The notes below the pieces were generated by a model. That model saw nothing but the letters and a program-made list of their open reading frames with translations. It had not been told where the DNA came from and ran no database searches. 64,000 nucleotides of DNA from Malacoraja senta (lineage: Eukaryota), in contig CM075991.1 in NCBI GenBank assembly GCA_038087875.1, positions 13,828,001 to 13,892,000 on the forward strand, in the 5' to 3' direction. Within the stretch, counting starts at the first letter, position 1. Each line of letters starts with the position of its first letter. The position numbers and the translations under genes are program-made. Below are positions 2,410 to 55,897 of this stretch, one piece after another.

Positions 2410-2860
2410 AACAAGGAACTGCCGATAGGCGCAAAATGCTGGAGTAACTCAGTGGGACAAGCAGCATCGCTGGAGAGATAGGCTGGGTAACGTCTCGGGT
2501 CAAGACCCTTCTTCAGACTAGTCAGGGGAAAGGAAAACGAGAGATATAGATGGTGATATAAAGATGTATAGAATAAGTGAATGAAAGATATGCAAAAAAG
2601 TAACGATGATAAAGGAAACAGGCCATTGCTAGCTGTTTGCTGGGTGAGAACAGGAACCTGGTGCGACTTGGGTGGGGGAGGGGTAGAGAGAGAGAAAATG
2701 CCAGGGTTACATGAAGTTAGAGAAATCAATTTTCTTTACACTGGCTTGTAAGCTGCCCAAGCGAAATATGAGGCGCTGTTCCTCCAATTTGCGATTAGCA
2801 TCATTCTGACAATGGAGGAGGCCGAGGACAGAAAGGTCATTGTGGGAATGGGAAGAGGAT
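2410..2860 (-). mobile_element. Penelope-like element 3' fragment (GIY-YIG C-terminus + pseudo-LTR)
   Basis: ORF 2707-2907 SHSHNDLSVLGLLHCQNDANRKLEEQRLIFRLGSLQ, followed by the agtctgaagaagggtc..gaccc terminal unit. Similar copies at 14366-14670 and ~52175-52770. Confidence 0.75.
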
Positions 2861-3843
2861 TTTATGTTTACAAAAAAGCTGGAGTAACTCAGTGGGTCAG
2901 GCAGCATCTCTGGAGAAAAGGAATAGGTGACTTTTCAGGTCGAAATCCCTCCTCAGACTGAGTGAGTCTGAAGAAGGGTCGCTCAGTCTGAAGAAGGGTC
3001 TTGGCCCGAAACGCAATCTGTTCCTTTTTTCCTGAGATGCTGCCTTGTCCCACTGAGTGACCCCGGCTTTTGTGTCTCTCTTCGGTTTAAACCTGCAACC
3101 GCAGTTCCTTCGTGCACAGTGTGTAGGTTTGTTATCATCACGTGTTACGAGATACAGTGAAAAGGTTTGGCTTGCATGGTATCCAAACAAATCAGACACA
3201 TTACACATCAATTTAATCAGGTCAAGCTCAGGTACAATAGGTGGAGAAATGTGAAGATACAGAGTGCAGAATATAGTTCTCAGCATTGTAGCGCACTGGT
3301 CCCAGAGACAAAGTCCAATGTCTGCAATAGGGTAGAGGTGAATCGGACAGTACCTTAGCTTATGGAAGCCTGATAACAGAGGGGAAGAAGCTGCTCCTGA
3401 GTCTGGTGGTGCGCACTTTCAAGCTCCTGTACCGTCTGCCGGACGGGAGCAGGGAGAAGAAGGGATGACCGGGGCTGGGCAAGTGTTTGTGGGCCCTGTC
3501 ATTGCTTCCTGCCTTCAATGCAAAGTGAAAGGGATATGTCCGAGATTAGCTCTTCTCCGGAGAGACTGCATCTTGCGTGTGAGCCTGGAACTCAGTGTGG
3601 AAATGTTTTCCCGATCGTGTGCAAGAATAGAAGGTTAAAAAGCCAGTATCTGTAAGGGTGGCCAAGAACCTAAAGGCTTCACTGGTTCACACATGTTCTT
3701 TAGGTATTTGCCAAAGCTATGCTGTTTCACTAACATGTAACTCCCAACTCTGACATGACCTAACCAGCTGGTTAAGACCATAGAAACTAGTTTAGTTTAT
3801 TGTCACGTGCACCAAGGTACAGTGAACAGCTTTTGTTGCTAAA

Positions 3844-5555: not shown

Positions 5556-6654
5556 CGAAACTAAACTATGGAATGTGGGAGGAAACCAGAGTGCCCGTAG
5601 AAAACCCACGTGGGTCACAGGGAAAATGTTCAAATTCCCTACAGACAGCACCCTTGGTCAGGATCGAACCCAGGTCTCTGGCGCTGTGAGGCAGCAACTC
5701 TACCGCTGTACCACCCCTAAATATAATGCCACGACAGGGCCAGCAGCATAATTATCCCGGACAATCCCCCTTCTCCCTTCTCCCATCAGGCAAGAGGTAC
5801 AGAAGTGTGAAAACGCACACCTTCAGATTCAGGGACAGTTTCTTCCCAGTTGTTAGCAGGCAAATGAACCATCCTACCACCAACCAGAGAGCAGTGCTGA
5901 GCTACCATCTACCTCATTGGAGACCCTGTGACTATCTCTAATTGGACTTTATGGGACTTTATCTTGCACTAAACGTTATACCCTTTACCTTGTTTCTGTG
6001 CACTGTGGACGGCTCGATTGTAATCATGTATTGTCTTTCTGCACACACGACCAATAAGCCTTTGCACTGTACCTCGGTACCCATGACAATAAACTAAACT
6101 AAACTAAATTAAACCTGGAGGGGCTGCATCTGGAAGTACGTGGTCTCTGATCAGCAACTTTGTGTTCCCATATGAAATGGTAGCAACCAGAAGGCCATTC
6201 AGCCCCTTGGACAGACTTCATCATTTAGTGTAATGGGCAACTCTGTACCTCGTCCACTCTCCAGAACCATCAACGTTTCCGAGATTCCCACTGGGAATAA
6301 ACACCTTGCAAATTTAGCCCAGGATGCATTGCAAAAGAGAATTCCAAACCTGTATAACCCTTGGTGAAAGGAAATTCTCATCATCCTAAGACCGGAGTTT
6401 ACTTTTGTGGAAATTTTAATGACACAGAAGGAGGCCTTTCAGCCCATCGACAAGAGCACCCCTTACCTAACCTAACCCCATCAGCACTGTAACCCAACAG
6501 GTCACAGAGTCATGTGCAGGAAGGAACTGCAGATGCTGGTTTAAACCAGAGATAGACACAACATGCTGGAGTAACTCAGCGAGACGGGCAGCACCAGCGG
6601 AGGGAAGGAATGGGTGACGTTTTGGGCCGAGGGGTCTCGACCCGAAACGTCAGT

Positions 6655-6682
6655 CTGAAGAAGGGTCTCGACCCGAAACGTC
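6655..6682 (+). ncRNA. Minimal type I hammerhead ribozyme core in a Penelope pseudo-LTR (representative copy)
   Basis: CTGAAGA-A-GGGTC-TC-GACCC-GAAA-CGTC gives the CUGANGA box, stem II, GAAA box and GUC triplet. Other cores with both boxes intact: 12346-12373(+), 14430-14457(-), 38583-38610(+), 41425-41452(+), 54597-54624(-). Confidence 0.7.
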
Positions 6683-9065
6683 ACCCATTCCTTCTCTCCA
6701 GAGATGCTGCCTGACCCACTGAGTTACTCCAGCATTTTGTGTCTATCTCTGGTTTAAACCAGCATCTGCAGTTTCTTATTGACTTTATTCTCTGGTTCTT
6801 GATTCCCCTACTCTGGGCAAAATACTCTTGTGTATTCAACCTATCTAATCCCCTCATGATCTTATAGAGTTCCAGTAGATCAGCCCTCATCCTCCTGTGC
6901 TCCAAGGAATAAAGTCCCAATTTAATCTACCAGAGTCATCCAGTGTGGAAACATCAAAGTTTAGTTTAGTTTTAGTTTATAGATACAGCGCGGAAACAGG
7001 TCCTTCGGTCCATTGAGTCCGCACCGACCAGCGATCCCCGCACACTAACACCATCCTGCACACACGAGGGACAATTTACACTTACACCAAGCCCATTAAC
7101 CCACAAACCTGTACGTCTTGGGATTGTGGGAGGAGATCGAAGATCTCAGAGAAAACCCACGTGGTCACGGGGAGAACGTACAAACTCCATACAGACAGCA
7201 CCCGTAGTTGGGATCGAACCTAGGTCTCTGGCGCTGCAAGCGATGTAAAGGGGCAGAAGGACGCTATGACTCTTTGGGTGACTAGGAGACCTCTCACGAC
7301 CATGCAGGCGACATCCTGGCGACATGCCCCCTGGTGAGACCCGCGACATGTCGCCAGGGATCGGCTGTATGGTCGTGAGATGTCACCTAGTCACCCAAAG
7401 AGTCGTAGCGTCTTTCTGGTCGCCGCTGAATTTTCAACATGTTGAACATTTTCGGCGGCCTATGACGGGTGCCGGCAGTCGCCGAAAAGGTCACGTAAGT
7501 GGGACAGGCCCTTTAGGCAGCAACCGTGCTGTCTTGTATTGCCTGTGTTCTACCCACCCATCCCCTGCCTTCTCTGCAAATGAAACCAACTTGCTTTCTC
7601 GCTTAGGGACAAGGAACTGCATACGCTGGTTTGCAGCAAAAGGCACAAAGACTGCGAATGCTTTTGCCATGTGGTTGCAATGGATCTATCGCCAATAGAC
7701 GTTTGTAAAATTCAGACATCCATCAAGTCAGTGTATCCGTTCAGACACGATGGATTAAGTTTCATCTGCACAAAAGATGTTTGAGAAATGACACGCAATT
7801 GCCGTGTGACAGGTTTTTCTAGTCCCATGTGAGAACGTCGTGGTTAAGGACTTTGATAAGAATGGGGCATATGTTGAATATAATGGTGCATTCAATTCAG
7901 CTCAGAGGGAAGGCCATTCAGCCCTACACACCACTGATAGACACAAAATGAACAGAAAATGCCAGAGTAACTCAGCGGGACAGGTAACATCTCTGGAGAG
8001 AAGGAATGGGTGACGTTTTGGGTCGAGACCCTTCTTGGGTCTGGCTGGCATGGATCCAAAGAGGGTTATGTACATTGTAATGGCAATGCAAATCTTCTCT
8101 GAAGGGCTGCTAAGAAGGTATTTTGGCTGTTGGCAACTGATCCAAGCTGGTAGATATGTCCACCTACTTGCTCCTACTGCACAGTGATCAGGCCAACACT
8201 CCAACAAACCCACTCTTAATGGTGAATATTTCTATCTAATTCCCTCTTCATCTTCTCCAGCGAAACTATATTCAATTTTTCATCCAAACAACACCACATT
8301 ATCTTATGGAAAACAAAACTGCTGGAAGAACTCAGCATGTCAGGCAGTAGCTATGGAGAGTGAATGGATAATGCATGTGTTAGAGGTGCTGCCTCACAGC
8401 ACCACGGGCAGCACAGTGGTGCAGCGGTAGAGTTGTGCCAGGGACCCGGGTTGAATCCTGTCTGTACTCAGTTTGTACCTTCTCCTCCTTGACCCGCGTG
8501 GGTTTTCTCCGAGATCTTCGGTTCCCTCCAACACGCCAAAGACGTAGAGGTTTGTAGGTTAATTGTCCCGAGTGTGTGTAGGACGGTGTTAATGTGCGGA
8601 GATCGCTGGTCAGTGCAGACTCGGTGGGCCGAAGGGCCTGCTTCCACACTGTATCTCTAAACTAAACTAAACTTAACTAAACTAAACGTAACTAAACGAG
8701 ACCAGGGTTCGATCCTGACCTTGGATACTGTCTGTGTGGAGTTTCTACATTCATCCTGTGACCATGTGGGTTTCCTTTGTGTGTTCTGGTTTCCAACCAA
8801 ATCCCAAAGAGGATTGGTGGAGATCTCAGGGAGGGGGGGGGGGAGTGGGGGGGGTGTACATTAATCAGCCTCTATAAATCGAATTATAGGGAGTGGATGG
8901 GGAAAGTGGAATAACATAGAACTAGGTGATCGAGGGTCTGTGTGGACTCAAGAGGGTCTGTGTGGACCTGTATCTTTCAAGCAATTCAATACAACATTTC
9001 AGGTTGGGCCATCTCTTCAGACTGAAGAAGAGTCCCTGCGCAAAACATCATCTGTCCATTTCCCT

Positions 9066-9600: not shown

Positions 9601-12600
9601 AATCCATTCCTCCTTGCATCTGAAGAGGTTGGTGAGCGTTGGTGTGTTTTCTGCTGTGATTTCTGATGTGCTGTTCCCATTGAGTTCCTCCAGCAGTCTG
9701 TTTTTATACTCAAGATTCCAGCACCTCTTGGGCTCCCTGTCTTCTCAATACTGTCCTGGCAGATATACGTTGGTCCTTTTCATACATTCCGTGGCACGTT
9801 AGCCAGGGTGGTGAATCTGTGGAATTCTTGGCCACAGAAGGCTGTGGAGGCCAAGTCAGTGAATATATTTAAGGCGGAGATAGATAGATTCTTGATTGGT
9901 ACGGGTGTCAGGGGTTATGGGGAGAAGGCAGGAGAATGAGATAGATCAGCCACGATTGAATGGTGGAGTAAACTTGATGGGCCGAATGGCCTAATTCTAC
10001 TCCTATCTCTTATGATCTTAGCAAAAACCACAACCTTTGCTGCTCGTGGCACTCATAGTCTGGTACAGATTAATCAACAGTAGTTTCCTTTGTGTTCAAT
10101 CCTAAAGATGGAAACAAAGTCATGTATCTATTCAACGTTTCCATGACTGAATGATAATTCAAAGTGATACACAGTCAATGAGCCACACTTGCTGGTGAAA
10201 TGTAGGACATGTCGGACTTGCCCATAAATAGCGGCATTTCAACTTGAAAATAAGAAAACTCTGGTATAAAATATGGGAAACACTCAGCGGGTCAGGCAGC
10301 ATCTGTGGAGGGAGAAACAGATTAGGCTCCGGTTTAGGTTCATTGTTACATGTACCGAGGCACAGCAGAAAGCTTTTTGTTTGAATGGTGTCCACTCGAA
10401 TCAGATAATGACAGAAGTAGATTAAAGCAAGGCGGCAGCCAGCATAATCAGTCTTTCCTTCCTCTCCCTTCTCCCGTCCGGCAGAAGATACAGGAGCTTG
10501 AAAGCGCGCACCACCACACTCAGGAACAGCTTCTTCCCCTCTGTTACTCCAACATCTGAACGGTGGTCCTTCCATAAGCGAGGGTACTGTCCGATTCATC
10601 TCTACCCCATTGCGGACATTGGACTTTGTCTCTGGGACTAGTGCGCTACAATGCTGAGAACTATATTCTGCACTCTGTATCTTCCCCTTTGCTCTACCTG
10701 TTGTAATTGAGTTTGGTTTGATGTCATTTATGTACAGTGTTATCTGAATTGATTGGATACCACCCAAAACAAAGCTTTTCACTGTACCTTAATACACATG
10801 ACAATATTAAACCTAAACCGACCAAATATGGTGTGGTATAGTACTTTATTTGTTACGTGTGCCGAGGTGCAGTGACGTTTATTTTTGTACACAGTTCAGT
10901 ACAAGTATCACTGTACATAAACACTCAGATACATCTTGGGTAAGCATCTCATATACAGAACAAGTGTACAGCAGTCGTACACTGAGAGGGTGTACAGAGT
11001 CGCTACATTGGGGCCATTTTCAAGTCCCAATCGTTGTAAGTACGGGGATCTTGACCTGACCATGAAGGCCCGTTGCCATGGCGACGTTGCAGGGCTGGCC
11101 TGGCCAAGCGTAGCCGTGGTGTCCTCCGCCGCTGCTCCACCGCTGTAGCCCGCGTCCGGTCAACGCGCTCGGCCGCTTGGAGCGGCAACAGGTAAAGCGA
11201 CCAGAGAGATACCAGCGTGCAAAATCTAGTTCTTAGCACCGCAGCATAACAGCGCCAGAGACATGAGGCACAAGGGACTGCAGATGCTGGAATCCTGAGC
11301 AAAAACGCAAACTGCTGGAGGAAACCAGGGGGACAGGCATCAGCTGTGGAGGGAATGGACAGACCATGTTTCAGATCAATAGACAATAGGCAATAGGTAC
11401 AGGAGTAGGCCATTCGGCCCTTCGAGCCAGCACTGCCATTCACTGTGATCATGGCTGATCATCCTGCCTTCTCCCTATATCCCCTGACTCCGCTATCTTT
11501 AAGAGCTCTATCTAACTCTCACTTGAAAGCACCAGAGAATTGGCCTCCACTGCCTTCTAAGATCTGAAGAAAGATCCCAATGCAAAACATTGTCTGCCAT
11601 TTCCCTCCACAGATTCTGGCCTGACAAGCTGAGTTTAATTTGGAGACACAGAATGGAAACAGGCCCTTCAGCCCACTGAGTTCAGGCCGACCATCGATCA
11701 CCCATTCACACTAATTCTATGTTATTCCATCTGCTGACCCACTCCCTACACACTAGGGGCAATTTACAGAAGCCAATTAAGCTACAAACCTGAGAATTGG
11801 GAGGAAACTGGAGCATCTGGAGAAAACCCACGCAGTCACAAGGAGAACGTGCAAACTCCACACAGGCAGTGCCCAAGTTTAGGATCGAACCTGGGTCTCT
11901 GTCGCTGTGAGGCAGCAGCTCTACCCGCTGCGTCACTGTGCCGTCCTGTTCTTCCAAGAAGGTCTGAAGAAGGGTCTCGACCCAAAACGCCACCCATTCT
12001 TTCGCTCCATAGATGCTGCCTCACCCGCTGAGTTTCTCCAGCATTTCTGTCTGCTTTCATATTCTGCTTGGGCAGCTGACATCCCAGCGATATGAACATT
12101 GAATTCTCTAATTTTAGGTAGCTTTTACATACACACCCCTCCCTCCCCCCTTCCTCCACCAAAAGTCGAATAACCGGTTCCACAGATCCTAAACAATATA
12201 ACCCTCTTGGGATCACTCCGTCTCCAGACAACAATCAGCCTATCAGGGATCCTCCCAACCTGAGGGCATCTGTTGGCAGCCCTGATTTATGCTGGTTGTT
12301 TTCTTGCTCCCCCCCCCCCTCCTCCCACACCCCACTACAATCAGTCTGAGGAAGGGTCCCAACCCGAAACGTCACCTGTCCATGTTCTCCAAAGATGCCG
12401 CCTGATCCGCTGAGTTACTCCGCCACTTTGTGTCTATCTTCTGGCAGTTTGTACTTTGCTAATGTTTTAAGTCGATGACTTCACAAGAACTGTTGAAGAT
12501 TTCTGATCAGAGGTCACTGTTCTGAAATATTAACTGGGAACAATGTAGGCGTGCATTGGAGGTATTGAGTCACACAGTGTGGAAACTGGCCCTTTGGCCC

Positions 12601-13680: not shown

Positions 13681-14365
13681 GACAGTTGGATTTAGCTCTT
13701 TGAGCTAACGGAATAGGGAGAAAGCAGGATCATGGTACTGATTTTGGATGATCAGCCATGATCATGTTGAATGGTGGTGCTGGCTCCAAGGGCCGAATGG
13801 CCTACTCCTGCACCTATTTTCTATATTTCCATGTCCTGTTTTCATGCTGTATGACCCTATGAATATGACTATGCCTCCATGACACTAAATCACCTGCAAG
13901 CGACCAGCCATGGTAGGGGTGAGGCGGTGAGGGTGGGGGTGGGTGGGGGAGTGAAATCTCCAAAGTTCCCACGGGGCAGAGCTACGAGATGTCAAATATT
14001 TCAGAGTGATACCAACAGCTGTCATGTTCACCACCTCTGATGAGTCACCTCAGACGTCGAAGGTCTGGTTCTTAATAGGTTTGCAAGTCCCGACAGGACG
14101 TCAGACACGGGTTATTGGCCGAGCTACGGCTCCAGACACGAGTGAATGAGACAGATGTGCCCAAACATGGAGATAACTATCTGGGTTGCACTCACGGTGA
14201 TGAGGCTGTGCCGTGTGACTGTTCATTCTTCATTGTGTCTGCGGCCACGAAGGCCATTAATGTGCCAATCTTTTAAAATTAGCTTTCCGCTGAATTCAGA
14301 CCTGAGGTTCATTCAGAAACCTCAAACACCTCCAGAAAAGAATTCCCATCAGTTCCCAAGTGAAG

Positions 14366-14670
14366 GTACACAAAAATGCTGGAGAAACTCAGCGGGTGCA
14401 GCAGCATCTATGGAGCGAAGGAAATAGGTAACGTTTCGGGCCGAAACCCTTCTTCAGACTGATAGGGGGTGGGGAGAAGAAAGGAAAAAAGGAAAAAAGG
14501 AAAATGGCGGAGGAGGAGCCCGAGGGCTGGGGGAGGGGAGGAGACAACCAGATGGCTGATGAAGCGGAGGGGACAGCAAGGGCTAGCAGAATTGGGAGAA
14601 TTCAATGTTCAAACCCCAGGATGTAGACTGCCCAAGCGGAATATGAGGTGCATTTCCTCCAATTTACAGT
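14366..14670 (-). mobile_element. Penelope-like insertion with a 14-bp target-site duplication
   Basis: gttcccaagtgaag at 14352-14365 and 14671-14684 flanks a KLEEMHLIFRLGSL remnant and a hammerhead-type unit at 14430-14457. Confidence 0.8.
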
Positions 14671-24192: not shown

Positions 24193-27037
24193 GGTCTTTG
24201 TCTTTCTGGTGACTGGATAGCACACTACAAAAGCTTTTCACTCTACCTCGGTACACGTGACAATAATCTAAACTGAACTTTAGAGATACAGCAGGGAAAC
24301 AGGCCTTTCGGCCCACCGAGCCCGCGCCGACCAGCAATCACCCCGTACACTAGCATTATCCTACACACTGGGGACTAGTTACAATTTTACGGAAGCCAAT
24401 TAACCTACAAACCCGCACGTCTTTTGGAGTGTGGGGGGAAGCTGGAGCACCCGGAGAAAACCCTCATGGTCACAGGGAGAGAGTACAGACTCTGTGCGGG
24501 CAGCACCTGTAGTCAGGATCGAACCCGGGTCTCCGGCGCTGTGAGGCAGCACCTCCGCCAACGTGCTGCAGACAAATCATCTTACGGACAGTTCTCAGGA
24601 GCAAACCCAGTGGCTGTCTGTACTCAAACAAATGCCACACAACACTGCAACTTTAAAGTCAGCTCTGTGAGTCACTGTATCGCCAGTAATGCAGCGTGAA
24701 GGCGTTTTGCAGGGGGTGCACATCCCTGCATGGTGTCGTGCAACCATGCCTTAGTCCATTAGGACCAGTTGTCTGTGTTCTTAGATTCCACGTCTTCAAG
24801 ACCTGTCCAGCTGGGTCACACGATGTATCAGAATGAGACTGCTTTAACACTCATGTGTAGACTTACCCACTTCACCCAGAGAGTTGTGAATCTGTGGAAT
24901 TCTCTGCCACAGAAGGCAGTGGAGGCCAATTCACTGGATGTCTTCAAGAGAGAGTTAGATTTAGCTCTTAGGGCTAACGGAATCAGGGGATATGGGGAGA
25001 AAGCAGGAACGGGATACTGATTCTGGATGATCAGCCATGGTCATATTGAATGGCGGTGGTGGCTCGAAGGGCCGAATGGCCTACTCCTGCACCTATTTAC
25101 TATGTTTCTATGTTTCTAAACACAGATGAGAACTCAGGGCCAAAGACTCTTCGCCACTTTAATTGCATCGTCAAACCAATGCTGTTTTTAATTTGCTCGC
25201 TATTCGCTCCCTGAAATTCTAAATCCTCTTGGAAAAATGTTTCCACCCTGTGCAAACCCAGGTTGTTCTCACTCGAGGCAAGGTGGCGCAGCGGTAGAGT
25301 TGCTGCCTCACAGCGCCAGAGACCCAGGTTCGATACTGACCACGGGTGCTGTCTGTACGGAGTTTGTACATTCTCCCTGTGACCGTGTGGGTGTCCTCCG
25401 GGTGCTCCGGTTTCCTCCCACATTCCCACTCCCAAGACGTGCATGTATGTAGTTTAATTGGCTTCTGTAAATTGTCCCTAGTGTGTAGGATAGAACTAGT
25501 GTATGGGTGAAGGTGATCGCTGGTCGGAGTGGACTCGGTGTGCGGAGGGACCTGTTTCCACGCTGTATCTCCACGCTGTAAGTTAGGGCTAAAGGAATCA
25601 ATGGATATGGGGAGAAGGTAGGAACAGGGTACTGATTCTGGATGATCAGCCATGAAGGGGCCGAGTGGCCTACTCCTGCACCTATTTTCTGTGTTTCAGA
25701 AGTGGAGCGGAGATCGGATCGGATGTCCCCTTCGAGACCTTTTACTGGCAGAACGATGTAGTACAAAGAGGGAAAGTTTGCAAAACGCAGGTGTTTCCTG
25801 CCAGAGTCTGTGTCGTGCTAGTTCCCAACATCAAACACCATGCAAGTCACCAACGTGAACCTCTCGCAGCTGAAGAGCAGGTGGAGATCTGAAACAAGAC
25901 AGAAGCAGCGACACAACTTGCATCTAAGGTTCCACGCAGTCAGCCATTAATTCGCAGGCAATTATTTAATGCCGGCTAAAAATGGAAACTTCAAAGGTGA
26001 CCTCTACAGTCACAAAGCTCGATTGTAAGTCTGAAGAAGGGTCTCGCCCCGAAACATCACCTATTCCTTCGCTCCATAGAAGCTGCCCCCACCCGCTGAG
26101 TTTCTCCAGCATTTTAGTCTAAACTCGATTGTAAGGTACAGGAAGGAACTGCAGATGCTGGCTTAAACTGAAGACAGATACAAAAAGCTGCAGTAACTCA
26201 GCAGGTCGGACAGGATCTCTGGAGAAAAGAATAGTCTGAAGAAGGGTCTCGACCCAAAACGTCACCAATTCCTTTTCTCCAGAGATGCTGTCTGAGCCGC
26301 CGAGTTACTCCAGCTTTTTGCGTCTATCTTCGATTGTAACAATTCCGCTGACTGGTTGGCACGCAACAAAAGCCTTTCACTCTACCTCGGTTTGCAATCG
26401 TTATTGTGCCAATGTATGGAAGCTGAGTTGGAATTCCATTGCCTTTCCTCAGTGTTCCTTCATCAGGGACACAGTCCAGACCAGGAGGGACTCAGTCAGA
26501 AGTTGATTTCAGTTTAGTTTAGAGATACAGCGCGGAAACAGGCCCTTCGGCCCACCGAGTCCGCGCTGACCAGCGATCCCCGCACACTACACACACTCTA
26601 CGGACAACTTACAATTTTACCAAAGCCAATTAGCATACAAACCTCTACGTCTTTGGAGTGTGGGAGGAAACCGGAGCACCCGGAGAAAACCCACGCAGGT
26701 CAACGTACAAACTCCGCACAGACAGCACCAGAGGGTCAGGATCGAACCCGGGTCTCTGGAGCTGTGCGGCTGCGCCAACGTGCCACCCTGAGTGAGTGAG
26801 TGAGGCGAGGTGGGACGGACAACACTAATGTACCTACAGCGCACCATGCACCCACCACAGCTGAAATTAGCCTGCTACTGAAAAGGGTTGAACACGGAAT
26901 TATAGAGCTCCACGCCGGCGATCCAGGCCCGTTGGCCTAGTGTGTCCACACAAACATTCAAACATGCATTGACATCAATCATCCCAGATTTGACCACTTA
27001 TCGTCACATTAGGGACAATTTACAAATTAATCAACCA

Positions 27038-38576: not shown

Positions 38577-38675
38577 TAGGGTCTGAAGAAGGGTTTCGGC
38601 CCGAAACGTTGCCTATTTCCTTCGCTCCATAGATGCTGCTGCACCCGCTGAGTTTCCCCAGCATTTCTGTCTACC
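38577..38675 (+). mobile_element. 99-bp hammerhead-bearing Penelope-derived insertion with a 13-bp TSD
   Basis: cacaatactgtaa at 38564-38576 and 38676-38688; inserted in a CR1 fragment in Ly6 intron 1. Confidence 0.8.
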
Positions 38676-43171: not shown

Positions 43172-43799
43172 TTAACGTTGTGTTGAGTGTACAGCAGGTT
43201 TCACGTGCTCGGAATGGGACGCGCTGAACCCCCTCGCCCTGTTGCCGGACGCCCTGGGGAACTCCGCGCGGGCGCCAGTGCGTGAGGCCGTGCCCTCGCG
43301 CCGACATCCTACACGCCCGCCCGAGGCTCTCGAAACCCTGAGAAACAAAAAGGCGAGAGGCCTGGAGATGAGCAAGTGGCCGTAGCTCACTCTGATCCGA
43401 ATCGTCTCGCAGTGCAACGTCCCAATGACCTCCCCACAACTTACACCCACCCCTAAATCTCCGTCCCAGGTCAGAACAGGACCTTCAACGCTCATCCCTG
43501 TGGTGCACAGGTAGTGAATGACACCTTGAAGATTAGAGGCGGCACTGGTGAAGCAGGTTACACCTGGGGGAAGCTGAGGCACCGACTGCCTTGGAACAAT
43601 TTGGCAAACGTCTGTTGTGTTTGTGCAGTGGCCATGACACAAAGATGAACAGCTGCCCCCATCTGCTCCGCAGGTTGTTTGGGCCGTTGCTGGTTAGAGG
43701 TTCTGATGGGTGGATGATGAGTTCCGGTTCTAAGTAAGGCAGCGTGCTTTGAGGAAGGAAGGCCTGGGGGGAAAAGCTGCGTCGTGCACAGGGCAGACC

Positions 43800-43868
43800 T
43801 CAGTCCATTCTTGCCAGCTTGGAGATCAGCTCGTCGCAGATCTTCGTCAGTTCTTCAATCTCTTGGTT
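43800..43868 (-). CDS. TACC1: TACC1 terminal coding exon
   Basis: ctcgcag|AAC CAA...GAC TGA. Encodes NQEIEELTKICDELISKLARMD*, the canonical TACC C-terminus (EELTKICDELI). Confidence 0.96.
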   Translation of the reverse strand, partial: NQEIEELTKICDELISKLARMD

Positions 43869-46800
43869 CTGCGAGTTAAAAAATGGGCAATTGTTTAAGA
43901 AAGAACTGCAGATGCTGGAAAAATCGAAGGTAAGACAAAATGCTGGAGAAACTCAGCGGGTGAGGCAGCATCTATGGAGCGAAGGAATAGGTGACGTTTC
44001 GGGTCGAGACCCTTCAATGATTGTGTCTCTATCCCCGGTTTACACCAACAGAAACGTCACCTGTTCCTTCGCTCCATAGATGCTGCCTCAGAAGGGTCTC
44101 GACCCATAGAAACATAGAAAATAGGTGCAGGAGGAGGCCATTCGACCCTTCGAGCCAGCACCACCATTCATTGTGATCATGGCTGATCGTCCCCTATCAA
44201 TAACCCGTGCCTGCCTTCTCCCCATATCCCTTGACCCGAAACATCACCTATTCCTTCGCTCCATAGATGCTGCCTTACCCGCTGAGTTTCTCCAGCATTT
44301 TTATCTATCTACCTAACATAAAAGAGGACAAGGTCGGCAAATGAAAAATTCCACCTCAACAAATAAACAAACACAGATTCTGGAAATGGGGTCATAGTCA
44401 GATGGCGCGGACTCAGGCCATTCGGCCCAACTTCCCCATGCCGACCAACATGCCCCATCTACACTAGTCCCATCTGCCTAGTGCCATTTAAAAAAAAATA
44501 TATACCAAAAATAATTTAAATCAATTATTTACAAAAATGCTATGTACAATACAAAACAATGCAAACAAACCCACCACCATAATACAAAGTCAAGCAAATA
44601 TTCTTAAATACTGAATATTAAATAACTATTTCACAATTCTTGTTAAGGATACATTCCATCCCCAGCGGTCCCGGAAGTCCCCCAGGGCGCCCGTGGACAG
44701 CGCGAGGTCCCTTTCTAAAACTACCTGGGCGCGGACATAACCTTGGAAAAGATTACCTCCTGCCTTCTCCCCGTAACCAACCAAGTATCTGGCTTTGGCA
44801 GCCGGCTTGGGGCAGAGACCTCCTCCGCCTGGTGCTGTGACTCTCGGATGGCCAGCTTGGCCAGGCCCAGGAGCAACCCAACCAGGACATCTTCAGCCAA
44901 GCCTCTCCCCTACGCACAGGGTGTCCAAAGATGAGGATGGTGGGTGTGAAGTGCAGCCAGAAGGCTCTGGGCCCAAATTATGTGGCATGATAAACAACAA
45001 TGGTCCTTTAAACCACAATGCCATGAAATGGCCTCATTTCACCCAAAATCAATATTTCCATTCAGCAAAGCACAAACTACTGAAGGAACAGAGTGAGCCA
45101 GGCAGCATCTCTGGAGGGAATGGACAGGCGATGTTTCAGGTCCAGGGACCGTTCTTGAGAAGTCGTCCATCCATTCCCTCCACAGATGCTGCTTGACCTG
45201 CTGATGACTCCAGCACTTGGTCTTTTTTTTCCTCAGATTTTTGCAACTGCCTCTCCTTTAGATTGGAGACGATGAGGACTCTCTTTAACCAGAGGGCGGT
45301 GAACCTGTGGAATTCATTGCCACAGAGGGCAAGTCAAAGGATATTTTTAAAGCAGAGATTTTTAAAGCCAGATGCTTGGTTGGTTACGGGGAGAAGGCAG
45401 GAGAATGGGGTTGAGAGGGAAAGATAGATCAGCCATGATTGAATGGTGGAGTAGACTCGATGGGCCGAATGGTCTAATTCTACTCCTAAGTTATGATCTG
45501 ATGACCCATTATTGTAATTGGTTCAAGGGACATGATAATCTCTGGCAGCACCAACATACTGTATATTGTCTGTTCCCGATTGCCTTGGAACATATGTGGG
45601 CCATTTCAGAGTTCACTTCAGAGTCAAGTGCATTGATGTGGTTCAGTCACATGCAGGCCACACCAAGCCTGGCCAGCAGATTGCTTCCCTTGAATGCTAT
45701 GACTAATATTTACAGCATTCCATAAGTTCCATGGCCACCACTACTAACACTTGCCTTTCATTCCAAACTTTACGTGAATTCCCAGCCAGGGAATAAATGT
45801 CTCTGGAGCAACAATCGATCCCAAACAACAACTTAAACACTCTGCCCCCTCATGGTGGCACGGTGGAGCTATGATAGAACTATTGCCTCACAGAGTCAGA
45901 GACCCGGGTTCGATCCTGACCACGGGTGCTGTCTGTACGTAGGTTGTACCTTCTCCCCGTGACTGCGTGAGTTTTCTCTGGGACCTCCGCTTTCATCCCG
46001 CACTACAAAGATGTCGGCTAATTGGCCTCTGTAAATTGTCCCGACGGTCCCTAAATTGTCCCTAGCTCTTGGGGCTAACGGAATCTAGGGATATGGGGAG
46101 AAAGCAGGAACGGGGTACTGATTGTGGATGATCAGCCATGATCACATTGAATGGTGCTTCTGCTTCTGGCCTACTCCTGCAGCTATTTTCTATGTTTCTA
46201 TGTGTGTTGGATAGAACGAGTGTATGGGGTTATTGGTGGTTAGTGTGGACTGGATGGGTTAAAGGCCCAGTTTCCACGCTGCATCTCTAAACCAAACTAA
46301 ACTAAACTACTCGTTTAAGAAAGAACTGCAGGTGCTGGAAAAATCGAGGGTAGACAAAAATGCTGGAGAGACAGCGGGTGAGGCTCGACCCGAAACGTCA
46401 CCTATTCCTTCGCTCCATAGATGCTGCCTCACCCGCTGAGTTTCTCCAGCATTTTTGTCTGTCTTAAACTAAACTACTGCTCACCAAGTGGGAGTAAAGC
46501 TTCACTTTCATGGAACTAAGACACATTAATTTCTCTTTCTTGGAACCATTCTGCATTTATATTGTGGTTCGGCTGAGATCCAGCCATAATGTTCACTCTG
46601 CCATGAAATGACTGATGCAAACCACAGTGAATCCCAAGCCATCCAAACTTGGCCTGACCTGATCTAGTTCCTAGTCTCTCCTTTTATTATTAACCAAAAA
46701 TTATTTATTCGCCTATTTACAATAATATGTACATTACTAAATTATTAAAAACAAACCCACCGCCACAATACAAGCAAAATAAATATTCTCAAATTACTAT

Positions 46801-47311
46801 GTCCCCATCCTTACTGAGTATGCATTCCACCCCGCGCGGTGCCCAGCGGTCCCAGTAATCCCCCAGGGTGCCCGTGGACAGCTCGTAGTCCCTCTCTAGT
46901 ACCACCCGGGCACGGACGTGACACCGCAAAAGGGACAAGCAGCCGGCTCGGGCAGAGCCCTCTTCCGCCTGGCGCCGTGAATCCTTGTCTCTCCTTAAGA
47001 TTGGAGACGAGGAGGAATTTCATTAACCAGAGGGTGGCGAATCTGTGGAATTCATTGGCGAGGGTGGCGAATCTGTGGCAGGCCTCAGGCCTGTAGTCCA
47101 GATTACAGATAGAGCATGGAAAAACAGGCCCTTCAGCCCACTGAGTCCCTGCCGATCATCGATCGCCCGTTCACCCTAGTTCCACTTTCGACTAGAGTCG
47201 GAAGTATATTTTAATCAATCAGCCAGAAACTGTTCAGAGAGGCAGGTTCCAGCGCTCGGCACCTTGTAATGACATACACTGGAGTTCTGTTTCCAAGAAC
47301 ATTCTGATTTA

Positions 47312-47580
47312 AGGGCCTGTCCCACTTGGCGATCTTTTCGGCGACTGCCAGCAGTTGCCGCTGGAGTTCTGAACATTTCAAAAAGGCTGGAGTTCTGAAC
47401 ATTTCAAAAAGGCTGGAGTTCTGAACATTTCAAAATCCAGCAGCAACAAAAATAATGTTGTGACACTTGAGGAAACACCGCGCGTCGACATGTCGTCATG
47501 CCGCGGCGTTTTCGGCGACCTGATACATCAGTCAATCATGCCGGCAGTCGCCCAAACAATCGGCAAGTGGGACAGGCCAT
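47312..47580. mobile_element. PIF/Harbinger-type MITE
   Basis: TIR AGGGCCTGTCCCACTTG...CAAGTGGGACAGGCCAT; TTA duplication; internal 26-bp unit ctggagttctgaacatttcaaaaagg, ~3 copies (47361-47435). Confidence 0.82.
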
Positions 47581-47797
47581 TTACCTCAACACGAGACAAC
47601 CTGTTGGGGAACTCAGTGGGTCGAGCAGCATCTGTGGGGGGAGAGACCGCTCCAGTCTGAAGAAGGGTCCCGACCCAAAACGTCACCCATTCCTTCTCCC
47701 AGAGATGCCGCCTGTCCCGCTGAGTTACTCCAGCCTTTTTGTGTCTGTCTTCGGGTTAAACCGGCATCCACACTTCCATCCTACACACTCTGTTTAC

Positions 47798-47918
47798 CTT
47801 CTGTTGAATCGTCCTCTCCATGGAGTCCACCTTCATCTGCTCCTTGCGGAGGGTGGCCTGCATGGCCGCTCCTTCAGCATGAGCCTTGGCGCGGACCTGG
47901 GCGATCTCCTCGTTGGCC
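47798..47918 (-). CDS. TACC1: TACC1 coding exon
   Basis: ccccgcag|G GCC AAC...CAG AAG|gtaaac, 121 nt, phase 2/0. Encodes [40 protein letters not shown]. Confidence 0.95.
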
Positions 47919-49739
47919 CTGCGGGGGGTGAACGCAGAGAGTCAACACGTGTCTGTCAGGATGAAGGTGAAGGGGCTGGGGCAGGAGAGACCATCACACA
48001 AACCAACCCAACCTTCCTGTGGGATAATTCTGCTCAACTTTAACTGTTCTGCTGTGTTGGCACTCAGAAACATAGACAATAGGTGCAGGTGGAGGCCATT
48101 CGGCCCTTCGAGCCAGCACCACCATTCAATATGATCAATGTGATCATGGCTGATCATCCAAAATCAGTACCCCGTTCCTGCTTCCTCCACATATCCCTTG
48201 ATTCCGTTAGCCCTAAGAGTAAATCTAACTCTCTCTTGAAAACTTGACTCTTGACACGTGTTGCAAAACTCAAGATGCCACCTTGTTCTTAGGAAAGCCT
48301 TTGCCCAAATGATTGGAGCATTGTGTAGAGATACCTGCAAAACCAACAGCGCCTATGTATGGAAATGTAGGCAGTGTCGATAAAATCGCAACTCCCCGAC
48401 TAAGCTGCGTAAGGAACTAAGATATGTGCTAGTCTGTACATCCACTTGTTTATTCGGCAGTGTGTAAAACCCTGCTGTCTGTACTCTTGAGGAGTTGTCT
48501 CCTCCAGGATATCATGTATTAAAGTCTCCCTCCCCATGAGTCCGAGTCCTGGGTTGATTTCTCTGATCCTTCCATTGACCCCATCTACACCTCACGCTGC
48601 CTCGGCAAGGCCAGCAGCAGCATCATGCACCACAGAAGACCGTGGAGGCCAATCAATGGATATTTTCAAGGCAGAGATAGATACTGTAGATAGATAGATA
48701 GATGGATAGATAGATGGATTCTTCATTAGGACGGCTGTCAAGGGTTATGGGGAGAAGGCAGGAGAATGGGGTTCGGAGGGAGAGATAGATCAGCCATGTT
48801 TGGATGGGTGGAGTAGATTTGATGGGCCGAATGGCCTAATGCTGCTCCAACCACTTATGAACATGATAAGTCTCACCCCGGTCACTTCCTTTCTCCTCTC
48901 TCCCATCTGGCAAGAGGTACAGAAGTGTGAAAACGCATACCTCCAGATTCAGGGATAGTCTCCTCCCAGATGTGATCAGCCCAAGTGAACCGTCCTCTCA
49001 CCAACTGGAGAGCAGTCCTGACCTCCCATCGACCTCATTGGAGAACTGATCCATCTTGAATTGGACTTTATCTTGCACTAAACATTATAGACTTTACCCT
49101 TGTATAGTACACTGTGGACAGCTTGATTGGAATCATGTCTAGCCTTTTCGCTGACTGCATAGCATGCAACAAAATGATTTCACTGTACCTCAGCACATGT
49201 GACAATATATTAAACTAAACTAATGCCATCCCACCAGCACCTGGAAGCTGCCAATTCAAGGGTGCAGTTTGTCCTTGCCTCGTGAGAGCTTGGTAAGAGG
49301 TGGCTGCTTCTTCTATCTAAACCATCAATTTGCCATTTTCACACTCAGCGCCCAAGCAACAATCAGGGGGGGATATGCTCGGGCTGAGGATGTCCTGGTT
49401 GGGCTGCTCCTGGGCCTGGGCTACTTCTCCGTGGATTGTCACCTTGTCGTGGTGGAGAAGCTTGTGTGGACCTGAGATCATGAGAGCGATGCCGCCTGGA
49501 GCTATGCTCCTGGTAGGGCCACCCATGGTGGTAAGGTCCAGGGGGAGGACTCTGACAAAGAGCAATCCAACCAAGGCCTCAACGGTGGAACAGGCGGAGG
49601 ACGATGGCTGACCTTAGTGGAGCGTCACAACGGCTGGGAAGGTGGATGAAGGCTGCAGCAGAAAAGGGTCTCTGGTCATCTTGGACTCCATGCCACTGGA
49701 TCCTGACCCAGATCTGTCAAGGACCGTGGGGGTGGCTGG

Positions 49740-50040
49740 CCGCCAGTCGGAAGAGGGGTCTACGCGAACCGGGTACCTACTCCTTTTCCGGGGTTTCGTC
49801 CATGCCCGGGAGGTACTAGAGAGGGACCACGTGCTGTCCACGGGCGCCCTGGGGGATTTCCGGGACGGCTGGGCACCGCGGGGGGTGGAATGCATCCTTG
49901 ACAAGGATGGGGAAATAGTGATTTAATATTCAAGAATATTTGCTTTATTTTGTATTATGGTGGTAGGTTTGTTTGTATTGTTTTCTATTGTAAATAGCAC
50001 TTTTGTAAATAATAGAATAAAATAATTGTTGGTAATAAAA
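49740..50040 (+). mobile_element. Tx1/L1-clade LINE 3' end
   Basis: ORF end ..LLFRGFVHAREVLERDH..GDFRDGWAPRGVECILDKDGEIVI* plus AT-rich 3' UTR. Homologous ends lie on the minus strand at ~44490-44925 (LLLGLAKLAIRES) and ~46690-46985. Confidence 0.65.
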
Positions 50041-51482
50041 CAAAGGGGAAAGTGTGGAGGGACTGTGGTGGACAGTATTGATGTACTGGGAGCTGTGTAG
50101 ACTTGATGGGCCTTGTAAGTGTGGCCAATGTTGTACCTTTATTTAAGGAGGGCATCAGGGATATATCTGTCCGCACCTTCCCGAGGTGCCACGGACGAAG
50201 TCTCGGCGGAGTGCGTTACCGGGAGGAAGCCGTTGGAGATGTCGGACAGGAGGAGCGAGGGCCGAGGTGGGGGGGTGAATCAGGGTAATGCCTCCAGCTC
50301 CTTCAAGGTCGGCTGCAGGAGGAGCCCCCGGGACACAATGAGGGCCGGGCGAGGAAAGGAGAGGGACGTCGGTTCATGGCCGATCCGGTCGAGGGCCCTG
50401 CAGGAGCCTGGGGCTCGCCTGGATCGGGACCCGCTCCAGTAGACCGAGCGCCCGGGCCGACCGGACTTTGGATGCAGGAAACGGGGCCAAAACATGCCGG
50501 TGAATTTCACTGTACAATTGCACATGTGACAAATAGCGCAGCATTGAAGCATTGAGCCATTGAAGCAGGTCCTGCTACACACAGATGCGCCATGTAAAGC
50601 ACTTTATCAGGATGCATCACAGCACGGTTTGGGAACAGCTCCATCCAAGACCGTGAGAAATTGCAGAGAGTTGTGGACGCAGCCCAGACCATCACACAAA
50701 CCAACCTCCCTTCCATTGACTCCATCTACACCTCACGCTGCCTCGGCAAGGCCAGCAGCAGAATCAAGGACGAGTCTCACCCCGGTCACTCCTGTACTTC
50801 CCTCTCCCCATCAGGCAAAAGTACAGAAGTGTGAAAATTCAGGAACAGTTTCTTCCCAGCTGTTATCAGGCAACCGAATCATCCTACCACAACTAGAGAG
50901 CGGTCCTGAGCTACTATCTACCTCTGATGTCCCTCAGACTATCCTTAATCGGGCTTTGCTGGCTTAACCTTGCACTAAACGTTATTCCCTTATTATGTAC
51001 AGTATCTATACACTGAAAATGGATTGATTGGAATCATGTATAGTCTTTCTGCTGCCTGGTTAGCACGCAACATAGAAACATAGAAAATAGGTGCCGGAGT
51101 AGGCCATTCGGCCCTTCGAGTCGGCACTGCCATTCAATATGATCATGGCTGATCATCCAAAATCAGTACCCCATTCTTGCTTTCTCCCCACATCCCTTGA
51201 TTTCCTTTAGCCCTAAGAGCTCAATCTCTCTTGAATACATCCAGTGAATTGGCCTCCACTGCCCTCTGTGCAGAGAATTCCACAGATTCACAACTCACTG
51301 GGTGAAAAAGTTGTTCCTCATCTCAGTCCAAAATGGCCTACCCCTTATCTTAAACTGTAACCCCCTGATTCTGGACTCCCCCAACATGGGAACATTTTTC
51401 ATGCAACAGAAAGCTGTACCTCGGTACATGTGACAATAAACTAAACTAAACTAAAAAAAAATAGCCAGTGGCGTGCACTCAC

Positions 51483-51588
51483 TTGTCCAGTTTTCCTCTG
51501 CGTGCATTTTCAGGGCCTGATACCGTTGCTCCTCCTGTTTCACCCTGGCCAAGTAATCCTGAGCACATTTCTTCAACACTTCTTCATT
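51483..51588 (-). CDS. TACC1: TACC1 coding exon (106 nt as assembled; 107 nt needed to keep frame)
   Basis: ctgaag|AAT GAA...GACAA|gtgagt. Encodes [32 protein letters not shown], then reads GAGGAAAACTGGACAA, one A short of E-E-K-L-D-K. Confidence 0.93.
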
Positions 51589-53904
51589 CTTCAGGCACAA
51601 AGAGAAAACAAATCATTTTACTTTGGTTTTCAATTCTGTCCACGGAAAATGGGCAGCGCTGTCACGGGTCAAGTCTTTATCGCCAGTCTTCAAACACAAT
51701 GTGCTGGAGTAACCCAGCGGGTCGGGCAGCGTCTGTGGAGGGAAATGGGCAGGCAACCTTCCGGGTCGCGACCCTTCTTCAGACTGATTGTAGTGGGGGA
51801 GGGGGGGAGGCTGGAAGAGAGGTGGAGGCATGAGACAAAGCTTGGCAAGTGATAGGTGGACGAAATGTGTGGGAAGGAACTGCAGATGCTGGTTTAAACA
51901 GAAGGTAGACCATTTAGAACGGAGACGAGGAAACACTTTTTCTCACAGAGAGTGGTGAGTCTGTGGAATTCTCTGCCTCAGAGGGCGGTGGAGGCAGGTT
52001 CTCTGGATGATTTCAAGAGAGAGCTAGATTGGGCTCTTAAAAATAGCGGAGTCAGGGGATATGGGGAGAAGGCAGGAACGGGGTACTGATTGGGGATGAT
52101 CAGCCATGATCACATTGAATGGCGGTGCTGGCTCGAAGGTCCGAATGGCCTACTCCTGCACCTATTGTCTATTGTAGATATAAAATGCTGGAGTAACTCA
52201 GCGGGACAGGCAGCATCTCTGGAGAGAAGGAATGGGTGACGTTTTCGGGTCGAGACCCTTCTTCAGACTGGTTAGGGGAAAACGGAAACGAGAGATATAG
52301 ACGATGATGTGGAGAGATAAAGAACGATGAATGAAAGATGCAAAATTGTAACGATGATAAAGGAAACAGGCCATTGTTAGCTGTTTGTTGGGTGAAAACG
52401 TGAAGCTGGTGCGACTTGGTGGATACAGGTGAGGAGGGTTTAGTTGTCAGATGGGTAGAGATGGAAACGAGAGGAAAGGGAGTCAAGTAAAAAGAGAGGA
52501 GCGAAAGGAAAGAAAAGAAAGCCAAAGGAAGGGATGTAGGTGGAAGTGGACAGGGCAAGGGTAAAGGGAAGCAGGGATAGTTGGAGAAAATGGTGTGCAT
52601 CAGTGTGGGGAACAGGGAAGAGAGGGGGTGGGGTGGGGGAAAGGAGGGTGGGTGACCTAACATTGGAGTATTCAATGTTCATACTGCTGGGTTGTGAGCT
52701 ACCCAAACAGAATATGAGGTGCTGGTCCTCCAGTTTGCATGTGGCCTCACTCTGACAATGGAGGCGGCCCATTGTAGGTTGATTGGTAAAGTTGTAAATT
52801 GTCCCAAGTGTGCGTAGGATAGTGTTAGTGCGCAGGGATTGCTGGTCGCCACGGGCATGGTGGGCCGAAGGGCCTGATTCCTCGCTGAATCTCCAAAATG
52901 AAAGATCTGAACAAGGTCCCTACGCATTGTCCTGTCCGTTCCCTCCGCAGATGCTGCCTGACCTGCTGAGTTTCTTTGATCACTTTGTGTTTTACTCAAG
53001 ATTCCAGAGCCTGCAGTCAGTCCCCTCTTGTGAGGGCTGTGCCCCGTGGCTGAAGCTCCCTGGCCTGCAGGGGAACCACTTGTGAGGGCCGTGCCCCGTG
53101 GCTGAAGCTCCCTGGCCTGCAGGGAGAGCCACCGAGACGCCCCCCCCCCCCCTCCGCCGGTGCGGAGCGGGTCCGGGATCCAGCCTACCGTGTCCTTGAG
53201 GTCGGCTGCGAGAGTCTCCCCCATAGGGAACAAAGATGGACGGGCGAGGAGAGGGACGTGGGTTCGCTGGTCGCCAACTTTCTCACTCCCAAATAACGGA
53301 CAAAAGGCCAAAATACGGGACAAATTCCCGACGGCAATTCGTTGACCGACTCGGCCGTGTCTGGGTGAATTGATGAGTTGGCCCCGGGTGCTGGACTGCA
53401 CACAAAGCCCAGCCGGCGGGCCAGCTGAGGAGTTTTGGCCCAGGCGCGACAAAGTCCGGCACCCCATCCAACGCATGAACCGATGATCGCCCATGAGAAT
53501 AGACAATAGACAATAGGTGCAGGAGTAGGCCATTCGGCCCTTCGAGCCAGCACCGCCATTCAATGTGATCATGGCTGATCATCCCCAATCAGTACCCCGT
53601 TCCTGCCTTTTCCCCATATCCCCTGACTCCGCTATTTTTAAGAGCCCTATCTAGCTCTCTCTTGAAAGTATCCAGAGAACTGCCTCCACTGCCTCTGAGG
53701 AAGAGAATTCCACAGACTCACCACTCTTCTGTGAGAAAAAGTGTTTCCTCATCTCCGTTCTAAATGGCTTAATCCTTATTCTTAAACTGTGGCCCCTGGT
53801 TCTGGACTCCCCCAACAACGGGAAATGTTTCCTGCCTCCAGCGTGTCCAAGCCCTTAACAATCTTATATGTTTCAATAAGATCCAATACTGATCACAATA
53901 ATGA

Positions 53905-54197
53905 TTCACTAAGTAGGGGTGGTGGTGGTGTCGGCGGTAAGCGAAGGTCCGAAGGTCGGACAACTGGCCGGGCTGCCGACCGACGGGCCCACGGGCTAGG
54001 CGTTGCTGCTGCACTCCATGGGCTGCACCACATCGGGACGGGTAAGACGGGGCCTGACGCGGCGCTCCGACCCGACAGTCCCCTCGACCCGAGTAGCAAC
54101 AGTCAAGTACGGGACAAGGGCGGTTCCCGTACGCGACAAACCAATTTAGCCCAAAAAACAGGATGTCCCGGCTAATACGGGACAGTTGGCAACCCTA
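53905..54197. mobile_element. hAT-like DNA transposon end fragment
   Basis: Terminus ..gggacagttggcaacccta (TAGGGTTGCCAAC on minus) with subterminal tacgggac repeats; other end not found. Confidence 0.55.

Positions 54198-55861: not shown

Positions 55862-55897
<36 letters not shown>

Follow-up and report, generated by a model that had tools for sequence, protein, structure and literature searches.

Minimal hammerhead motifs in a skate genome derive from the 3′-terminal segment of a Penelope-like element and probably persist mostly as decayed insertion stubs

We analyzed a 64-kb stretch of the genome of the skate Malacoraja senta (assembly GCA_038087875.1, contig CM075991.1, positions 13,828,001 to 13,892,000 of the forward strand; hereafter the window, numbered from its first letter), in which an abundant repeat carries the motif of a minimal hammerhead ribozyme (min-HHR) as known from Penelope-like elements (PLEs). 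A profile built from 15 window copies of this ~130-nt repeat gives 71 matches, which cover 6113 bases, or 9.6% of the window. The segment 6515–6776, treated as one unit in a preliminary description of this DNA, is in fact a head-to-head pair of copies plus a 21-nt partial duplicate. Its left arm (6520..6631, minus strand) consists of the tail and, of the hammerhead, only the 3′ half, without a CUGANGA box and with G12>A. It is followed on the plus strand by the partial direct duplicate (6632..6652; stem II, GAAAC, and GUC), which a TCA microhomology joins to the full plus arm (6650–6780) with a period of 31 nt. This full arm contains an intact min-HHR at 6653..6684: a 2-bp stem I (6653–6654 with 6683–6684), CUGAAGA (6655–6661), an extra A (6662), stem II (6663–6674), GAAA (6675–6678), and C-G-T-C (6679–6682), with the palindromic ACGU at 6678–6681 and the predicted cut after 6682. 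The remainder of the plus arm, 6685..6780, is the PLE terminal segment with its optional ~35-nt tail, which pairs in RNA with the left arm. The RNA of 6515–6776 folds into a single hairpin (−191.7 kcal/mol, z −21.5) in which the core is buried and the opposite arm pairs with both the GUC and the 3′ stem I strand; no target duplication was found at this locus. The 31-nt tandem at 6632–6682 was considered as a dimer in cis and rejected: the upstream unit has no CUGANGA, and between its GUC and C3 there are just 3 nt, which is too few for stem I.

The repeat opens with CUGAAGA-A-[4-bp stem II]-GAAAC-GUC, the layout of a min-HHR, which confirms the hammerhead core recognized in the preliminary description. 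Across 33 core-spanning matches, the catalytic bases (C3-U4-G5-A6-N7-G8-A9, G12-A13-A14-A15.1, U16.1, and H17) are the majority base at every position. The extra A ahead of stem II and the near absence of stem III were likewise correctly seen: The nucleotide between 9 and 10.1 is A in 29 of the 33, and there is no helix III loop, only the palindromic 15.2–16.2 tetranucleotide ACGU (C-G in 22/32, the remainder mostly CpG decay). The G10.1–C11.1 pair is G-C in 28 of 32 aligned rows. Stem II had been drawn as five pairs, GGGUC/GACCC, but the fifth would leave a 2-nt loop, and the stem is 4 bp closed by a tetraloop (GGGU-CUCG-ACCC). A full descriptor of the motif (both boxes, at least three stem II pairs, the palindrome, and two stem I pairs) matched five times in the window and not once in any of 200 Markov-resampled windows; it should be noted that copies of one repeat are not independent, and this count is not our main argument for the motif. 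The covariance-model search that had been proposed as a check returned no hammerhead: Rfam gave no such match at gathering scores over the whole window and none at E ≤ 10 in 38400–38800 and 6400–6900. The microRNA families that it reported at 6400–6900 were discarded as a reflection of the long hairpin there. Judged by its sequence, the repeat belongs with the PLE min-HHRs and is predicted to work as they do.

The source of the repeat is the 3′-terminal segment, a pseudo-long terminal repeat (hammerhead and tail), of an endonuclease-bearing PLE. A tblastn search with five PLE-type proteins detected five remnants of a GIY-YIG endonuclease C-terminus in the window, and no piece of a PLE reverse transcriptase (RT). 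Four of the five are followed by a pyrimidine-rich spacer and a same-strand hammerhead copy within ~130–390 nt, which bears out the earlier attribution to Penelope; the fifth (61430–61516) lies 1.3 kb from the next hammerhead copy. The four linked cases are a 5′-truncated PLE at 2424..2865 (minus strand; GIY-YIG C-terminus at 2710–2865, spacer, hammerhead with C3 at 2516 and A14>G, terminal segment), truncated PLEs at 12056..12441 (plus strand; intact min-HHR, C3 12346) and 14362..14665 (minus strand; intact min-HHR with a GUU triplet, C3 14457), each with endonuclease remnant and spacer, and one at 52175..52772 (minus strand; remnant 52656–52772, spacer, hammerhead with C3 at 52266 and an extra A in the GAAA box). 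The remnant at 2710–2865 is most similar to two skate proteins (67%) and is 59% identical to a whale shark open reading frame (ORF) with RT and GIY-YIG domains; two of the short remnants were not recognized by Pfam when taken alone. Contigs of the sequencing run X1 cover 2503–2694 and 2578–2820, giving the same linkage of endonuclease, spacer, and hammerhead outside the window. In PLE relatives P0003–P0007, also outside the window, a CxxC-type linker between RT and endonuclease can be seen by eye; a CX2-5CxxC linker at this place is the marker of the Neptune clade (PMC8557442), to which the element probably belongs.

Several further observations touch on this origin. At 11962–12441 lies a partial tandem in which a hammerhead stub directly abuts an endonuclease remnant, which leads through a spacer to another hammerhead. 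A PLE endonuclease C-terminus forms the end of two skate gene models, in one (P0001) after a domain like the RT of long interspersed elements (LINEs) and in the other (P0002) after neuromedin-U receptor 1, reflecting either annotation artefact or exonization; P0001 was rejected as proof of a PLE RT, its RT domain being LINE-like and joined to the PLE piece in the gene model, and P0003–P0007 served instead. The read-through peptide of a zebra shark PLE model (P0004) is compatible, by back-translation only, with the same core carrying U at position 7. Searches of other DNA gave no matches in metagenome contigs, none in viral contigs, and one in genome contigs (L001), and protein-led searches gave no loci and then three distant loci at 33–38%, without a min-HHR in the DNA examined. 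The L001 match, found through the core pattern alone, is a similarly built min-HHR whose 5-bp stem I is perfect (1501–1527, minus strand) in AT-rich, non-coding-looking DNA of a bacterial metagenome-assembled genome, and the contig is probably animal contamination.

The ends of the copies are informative about how they were made. We refer to each copy as an arm, whether solitary or paired. The 3′ ends of 70 arms (the partial duplicate left out, and the profile model stopping at 140) form two groups, with 27 at model positions 95–107 and 25 at 134–140, against 2 between and 16 earlier. The ~35 nt that separate them correspond to the PLE ‘tail’, elsewhere an optional segment of 30–40 bp (PMC8557442). 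About half of the arms belong to head-to-head pairs, some of which sit inside one single target duplication; of the 15 pairs and 5 single copies tested, 4 and 2, respectively, are flanked by duplications of 10–14 bp. The pair at 26142..26335, whose core carries G12>A, has a 10-bp duplication and an inverted arm that begins right after the cut site, and the plus-strand solo stub at 38577..38673 (intact min-HHR, C3 38583) lies in a 13-bp duplication, its stem I extended by 4 inverted nucleotides added at the 5′ end.

The 5′ ends of 67 arms were classed by hand, after four decayed or rearranged matches (11377, 11563, 33780, and 52906) had been dropped. Twelve extend upstream and 18 have their start in the 6-nt stretch that leads up to and includes C3; another 18 begin within the core, 6 between +1 and +5 past the cut site, and 13 in the tail. 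Thus 48 of the 67 were copied across an uncleaved site, which is what uncleaved RNA as the template would give and what is reported for the anole element (PMC11167929). The hammerhead holds 36 of 49 5′ ends against a share of 33 in 99 nt (p=1e-8; short tail-only arms are under-detected), and the highest rate per base is at its 5′ edge (model 7–12, TCAGT; 18/67 arm starts), not at the cleavage site. We rejected the cut as what defines the 5′ ends of the templates: Only the six arms at +1 to +5 would qualify, and the clear ones among them lie at microhomologies. Inverted arms that begin directly past the cut site occur at 26233/26234, in the pair described above, and at 15405/15409, a junction class that includes the stub at 38577, and opposite-strand joints of the same type occur in all four sequencing runs examined, including the DNA-like X18, their exact place being blurred by divergence between the reference and the copies.

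The sequence TCAGT resembles an initiator. Candidates for the stop in copying at this place are a transcription start, an intron end, as at helix I in Drosophila virilis (PMC4209133), or stalling at the pyrimidine tract. Of the five copies that extend as far as the stop codon, four have a GT donor close to it, whose use would keep an AG before the core. Arms starting at the hammerhead 5′ edge share no common upstream exon, and no splice joint was seen among the 15 listed of 156 joints in an RNA run of a relative; splicing as the supplier of a better stem I is thus unsupported. Other rearrangements include a solo stub inside the target duplication of an older head-to-head pair (26028–26335), where the same ~10 bases occur three times, and a head-to-tail pair of 57-nt repeats that is confined to the tail and joined at a CTATC microhomology (17145–17269). 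A recurrent go-back joint in the tail is also present in RNA reads of the relative.

Core homology extends over 28 of the 71 matches, the other 43 not being homologous there. Five of these 28 are intact, with C3 at 6655 (+), 12346 (+), 14457 (−), 38583 (+), and 54624 (−), and the copy at 41425 (+) is nearly so. Decay was measured in 25 core copies, with the three oldest dropped. G12, the general base of the hammerhead (PMC6155905), is changed to A in 8 of these 25, compared with 10 of 311 for G>A changes outside CpG (p=8e-6), which supports the previous suggestion that the frequent change of GAAA to AAAA is CpG decay. With subfamily-diagnostic columns removed, non-CpG differences affect 12/248 cells of the core (4.8%) and 54/877 of the tail (6.2%; p=0.54). 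The variants of stem II had been described as remaining paired; they do (pairing 87.1%), but at the level of shuffled alignments (86.7%), only 2 of 256 cells have double changes, and the variants are loop changes or a common one-sided change of U-A to U-G. Stem covariation within the window was 0.124 against 0.113 in shuffled data, with 52 of 500 shuffles as high, in a test of 32 aligned rows (8 not homologous at the 5′ end) that is a weak one for copies of a single repeat. Of the two sequence signs of function that the preliminary description had named, excess conservation of the catalytic boxes and covariation in stem II, neither therefore appears among the copies.

The stem I of the element itself is 2 bp, GU with AC, consisting of pairs 2.1–1.1 and 2.2–1.2 only, with A at position 2.3 in 26 of 27 and C at 1.3 in all 33. 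Longer stems had been proposed at 54597–54630 and 38575–38617, and the complementarity is real, but in the hammerhead register it amounts to only 3 bp (C3 54624) and 4 bp (C3 38583). At 38575 the first AA is part of the 13-bp target duplication, and the copy at 38577 has, between that duplication and the core, four non-target bases complementary to its 3′ flank; AATG at 54626 may be flank or a micro-inversion. These longer cases are products of junctions at individual loci, as is the very long stem I at 26140–26340, which surrounds a core that has lost G12. Folding of seven copies at three flank sizes, with tertiary contacts and proteins ignored, gave a probability of at most 0.05 for the 2.1–1.1 pair throughout and placed the open conformer 1.2–10.6 kcal/mol above the best fold; the active dimer lay 10–28 kcal/mol above the best two-strand fold.

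Part of the window is occupied by a TACC gene on the minus strand (43799..60836, possibly extending beyond 60836), with coding exons near 60836, at 55044–55166, 51499–51594, and 47804–47920, and a last exon ending at 43799. Three minus-strand exons match Pfam TACC_C above cut-off, and a single Atlas top match (0.94, low recognition) hints weakly at TACC1 as the paralogue. Hammerhead copies in sense orientation had been reported in TACC1 introns: both cited copies indeed lie in sense in the intron between 51594 and 55044 of this gene, the assignment to TACC1 remaining as weak as that match. The one at 54597–54624 is intact and belongs to a solo stub (54510..54626, minus strand), the only intact sense copy inside TACC in the window. 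That at 52238–52266, in the truncated PLE at 52175..52772, has the core GAAAACGUC with one surplus A, in its GAAA box; a further copy in the intron, at 51782, has A13>G and no palindrome. In total, eight arms inside TACC are sense and nine antisense, and the stub at 38577–38673 is downstream of TACC and antisense to it.

Transcripts were represented by one poly(A)-selected, fragmented RNA run of a relative, of which 6% was read and in which most reads were <90% alike, making it a poor test of cleavage. In it, 11,198 of 7,335,232 records fit a 466-bp stretch, on both strands, and there was no place where many molecules begin or end, so that the RNA-end check previously suggested yielded no pile-up in a library ill-suited to give one. 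The idea of a high-copy source of self-cleaving RNA fares poorly overall, given 5 intact of 28 cores, a 2-bp stem I, competing folds, and one intact sense copy in TACC.

We consider the repeat to be best explained as 3′-terminal stubs of a PLE bearing a min-HHR, reverse-transcribed from uncleaved RNA and mostly decayed in the host, and assign this a probability of roughly 0.8, because of the linkage to GIY-YIG, the anatomy of the min-HHR, the two classes of 3′ ends, the pairs inside single target duplications, and the neutral decay. By analogy with work on an anole PLE, the protein of the element would nick both DNA strands, and reverse transcription would begin at two internal sites ~80–120 nt downstream of stem II and proceed back through the uncleaved hammerhead. 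Most complementary DNAs (cDNAs) would halt at or inside the hammerhead, and two of them would often be joined there through self-complementary pieces (stem I, stem II, and ACGU), so that stubs of 90–135 nt and palindromes arise. Within the source elements, the hammerhead probably acts as a weak ribozyme that depends on dimers and protein. The copies in the host genome would be fossils, most of them with a broken core, and the intact ones with a stem I of 2–4 bp, no matching partner, and competing folds; for these reasons, cleavage of host RNA would be marginal at most.

Several points weigh against this reading. Neither a full-length PLE nor an RT was recovered, and the clade and the layout from ORF to hammerhead rest on fragments and relatives. 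The pattern of a tail on one arm, seen in 8 of 11 pairs with both arms long, is not beyond chance. If the subfamily-diagnostic positions are retained, differences are rarer in the core than in the tail (12/248 against 98/1044, p=0.022); because of this difference, the data suggest that source elements keep the core while their copies decay, and the subfamilies differ at tail positions and at no catalytic one. The fold energies take no account of tertiary contacts or proteins, and absent end pile-ups in a fragmented, poly(A)-selected run of a relative say little.

The alternative that survives best, and that we nevertheless think unlikely, is that the motif has lost its ribozyme function in this lineage, source elements included, and is retained to bind protein or as a promoter or splice signal. 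A stem I of only 2 bp would fit this, compared with the perfect 5 bp of the same core in the unrelated, animal-like contig L001, as would a 3′ flank that can pair with the CUGAAGA-A-GGGU box; yet helix I is also 2 bp in D. virilis (PMC4209133). The edge itself reads pyrimidine tract, CAG, core, reminiscent of the D. virilis intron that ends at helix I (PMC4209133), and hammerhead mutants did not impair insertion of the anole PLE in vitro (PMC11167929). What speaks for a ribozyme is that catalytic positions are alike across subfamilies whereas tail positions are not, and that the read-through peptide of the zebra shark PLE, by back-translation, appears to fit the same core.

Distinctly unlikely, in our estimate, is that the stubs form an independent, non-autonomous family, similar to short interspersed elements or retrozymes, whose transcription starts at the TCAGT just upstream of the core and whose RNA the PLE protein copies in trans. 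The 18 of 67 arms that start within 6 nt at the hammerhead 5′ edge, the clean solo stubs with target duplications (26028 and 38577), and the proposal that animal retrozymes are derivatives of PLE pseudo-long terminal repeats (10.64898/2026.07.22.740005) would all accord with such a family. It would not account for the 12 of 67 arms that extend into the pyrimidine-rich spacer, four of them reaching the endonuclease, nor for the origin of the same stubs from several subfamilies with differing spacers, and head-to-tail arrays of hammerhead-bearing monomers are absent among the 71 matches.

That intact genomic copies are live ribozymes cutting host precursor messenger RNA (pre-mRNA), TACC introns included, as dimers in cis or trans, is very unlikely. 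There are five intact cores in 64 kb, pairing partners exist because the repeat is abundant in the relative's poly(A) RNA, and some junctions lengthen stem I (38583, 54624, and 26236). Against this, the copies show neither excess core conservation nor covariation, the 2.1–1.1 pair and the active dimer are disfavored in the folds by the amounts given above, the other two core-spanning sense copies of the same TACC intron (52266 and 51782) are damaged, arms in TACC are almost evenly divided between sense and antisense, and read ends do not pile up. If true, sites that break pre-mRNA would be spread over the whole genome of a vertebrate; the evidence points against this. We hold as highly improbable a bolder version for batoid genomes, with ~100,000 intact cores (extrapolated at 78 per Mb from this one window), in which a recurrent class of junctions, with the inverted arm beginning 1–3 nt past the cut, rebuilds a long, locus-specific stem I around the core, the hammerheads so made by the host cut pre-mRNA with help from the PLE protein or from another copy, loss of G12 through CpG decay serves as an off switch, and the TCAGT pile-up marks the start of the element RNA and thereby explains why there are only stubs from a monomeric transcript. 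Finally, a chance likeness to the hammerhead inside an ordinary repeat, for which the lack of any Rfam hammerhead match and of covariation among copies might be cited, is scarcely credible given the presence of all 11 fixed core bases, the extra base, G10.1–C11.1, and the palindrome, at the same place in the PLE as published for min-HHRs.

A head-to-head stub pair at 43896–44088 ends ~30 nt ahead of the acceptor of the last TACC exon, and its hairpin could affect TACC splicing. At 31429–33206 (minus strand) there are exons of a Ly6/uPAR-domain gene, with a weak Pfam UPAR_LY6 match (E 0.00085) and a CC..CN end near 31569. In 1–43,500, 132 non-repeat frames were scanned, with one Pfam match, to ALKBH8_N at 35807–36310, which falls inside a LINE-like open frame. 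The frames at 19451–20029, 23754–24224, 35804–36310, 41799–42413, 55854–56567, and 57767–58426 resemble fragments of LINE RT or endonuclease. An assembly gap of 200 N occupies 21270–21469, and 39529–40277, with open frames of equal length on both strands, is probably a simple-sequence tract.

The PLE min-HHRs of Cervera and de la Pena (2014; PMC4209133), as described there, have the extra base between 9 and 10.1, G10.1–C11.1, and the palindromic 15.2–16.2; all of these and the missing helix III loop recur here, as do single dispersed motifs from truncated PLEs and close opposite-strand pairs. The difference is in stem I, which is 2 bp here and 4–5 bp there (2 bp in D. virilis). Cleavage was reported there as none for monomers and low for dimers, consistent with the original suggestion that the skate motif is a minimal type I hammerhead that could act only as a dimer. 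The density of 5 intact copies per 64 kb, if general, would be above the ~4,000 of coelacanth and ~9,000 of Xenopus given in that paper, whose text and searchable supplements do not name cartilaginous fish (file 1 lying outside that search). We found no publication that names PLE min-HHRs in skates or rays, some supplements being outside the search; the present copies most likely extend these motifs to a cartilaginous fish, at a very high local density.

Animal non-LTR (non-long terminal repeat) retrozymes (Cervera and de la Pena 2020, PMC7229834; Li et al. 2026 preprint) share with the skate repeat a type I hammerhead, a link to PLEs, high copy number, and long target duplications, and one chondrichthyan is included in a retrozyme survey. 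They are described as head-to-tail units of 150–450 bp with mostly canonical hammerheads and circular RNA, in contrast to the solo or head-to-head stubs of the skate, and in the preprint one of nine Xenopus retrozyme dimers cleaved. Identity with a retrozyme array was rejected: the 71 matches include no head-to-tail hammerhead array, only short partial duplicates.

In Poseidon PAc of Anolis carolinensis (Frangieh et al. 2024; PMC11167929), the hammerhead is likewise followed by two end points that define the tail, the element having two RT start sites. There, too, insertion proceeds from uncleaved RNA and no RNA sequencing ends lie at the cut site; cleavage by the hammerhead required protein, and insertion did not depend on the hammerhead. 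Unlike in PAc, whose ORF starts at stem II, the skate family has no ATG there, and its shark relatives have a CxxC-type linker, pointing to Neptune. With the PLE insertions of Craig et al. (2021; PMC8557442) and Arkhipova et al. (2013; PMC3846280), the skate units have in common 5′ truncation, an inverted 5′ pseudo-long terminal repeat, palindromic or microhomology junctions, a tail often on one end, and a target duplication around the whole unit; they differ in that nearly all are the terminal 90–135 nt and that the joints cluster within the hammerhead. What the hammerhead does in endonuclease-bearing PLEs is still described as unclear (PMC8557442), and the window provides a large natural sample of PLE insertion ends, in which uncleaved RNA was copied and copying stops at the 5′ edge of the hammerhead.

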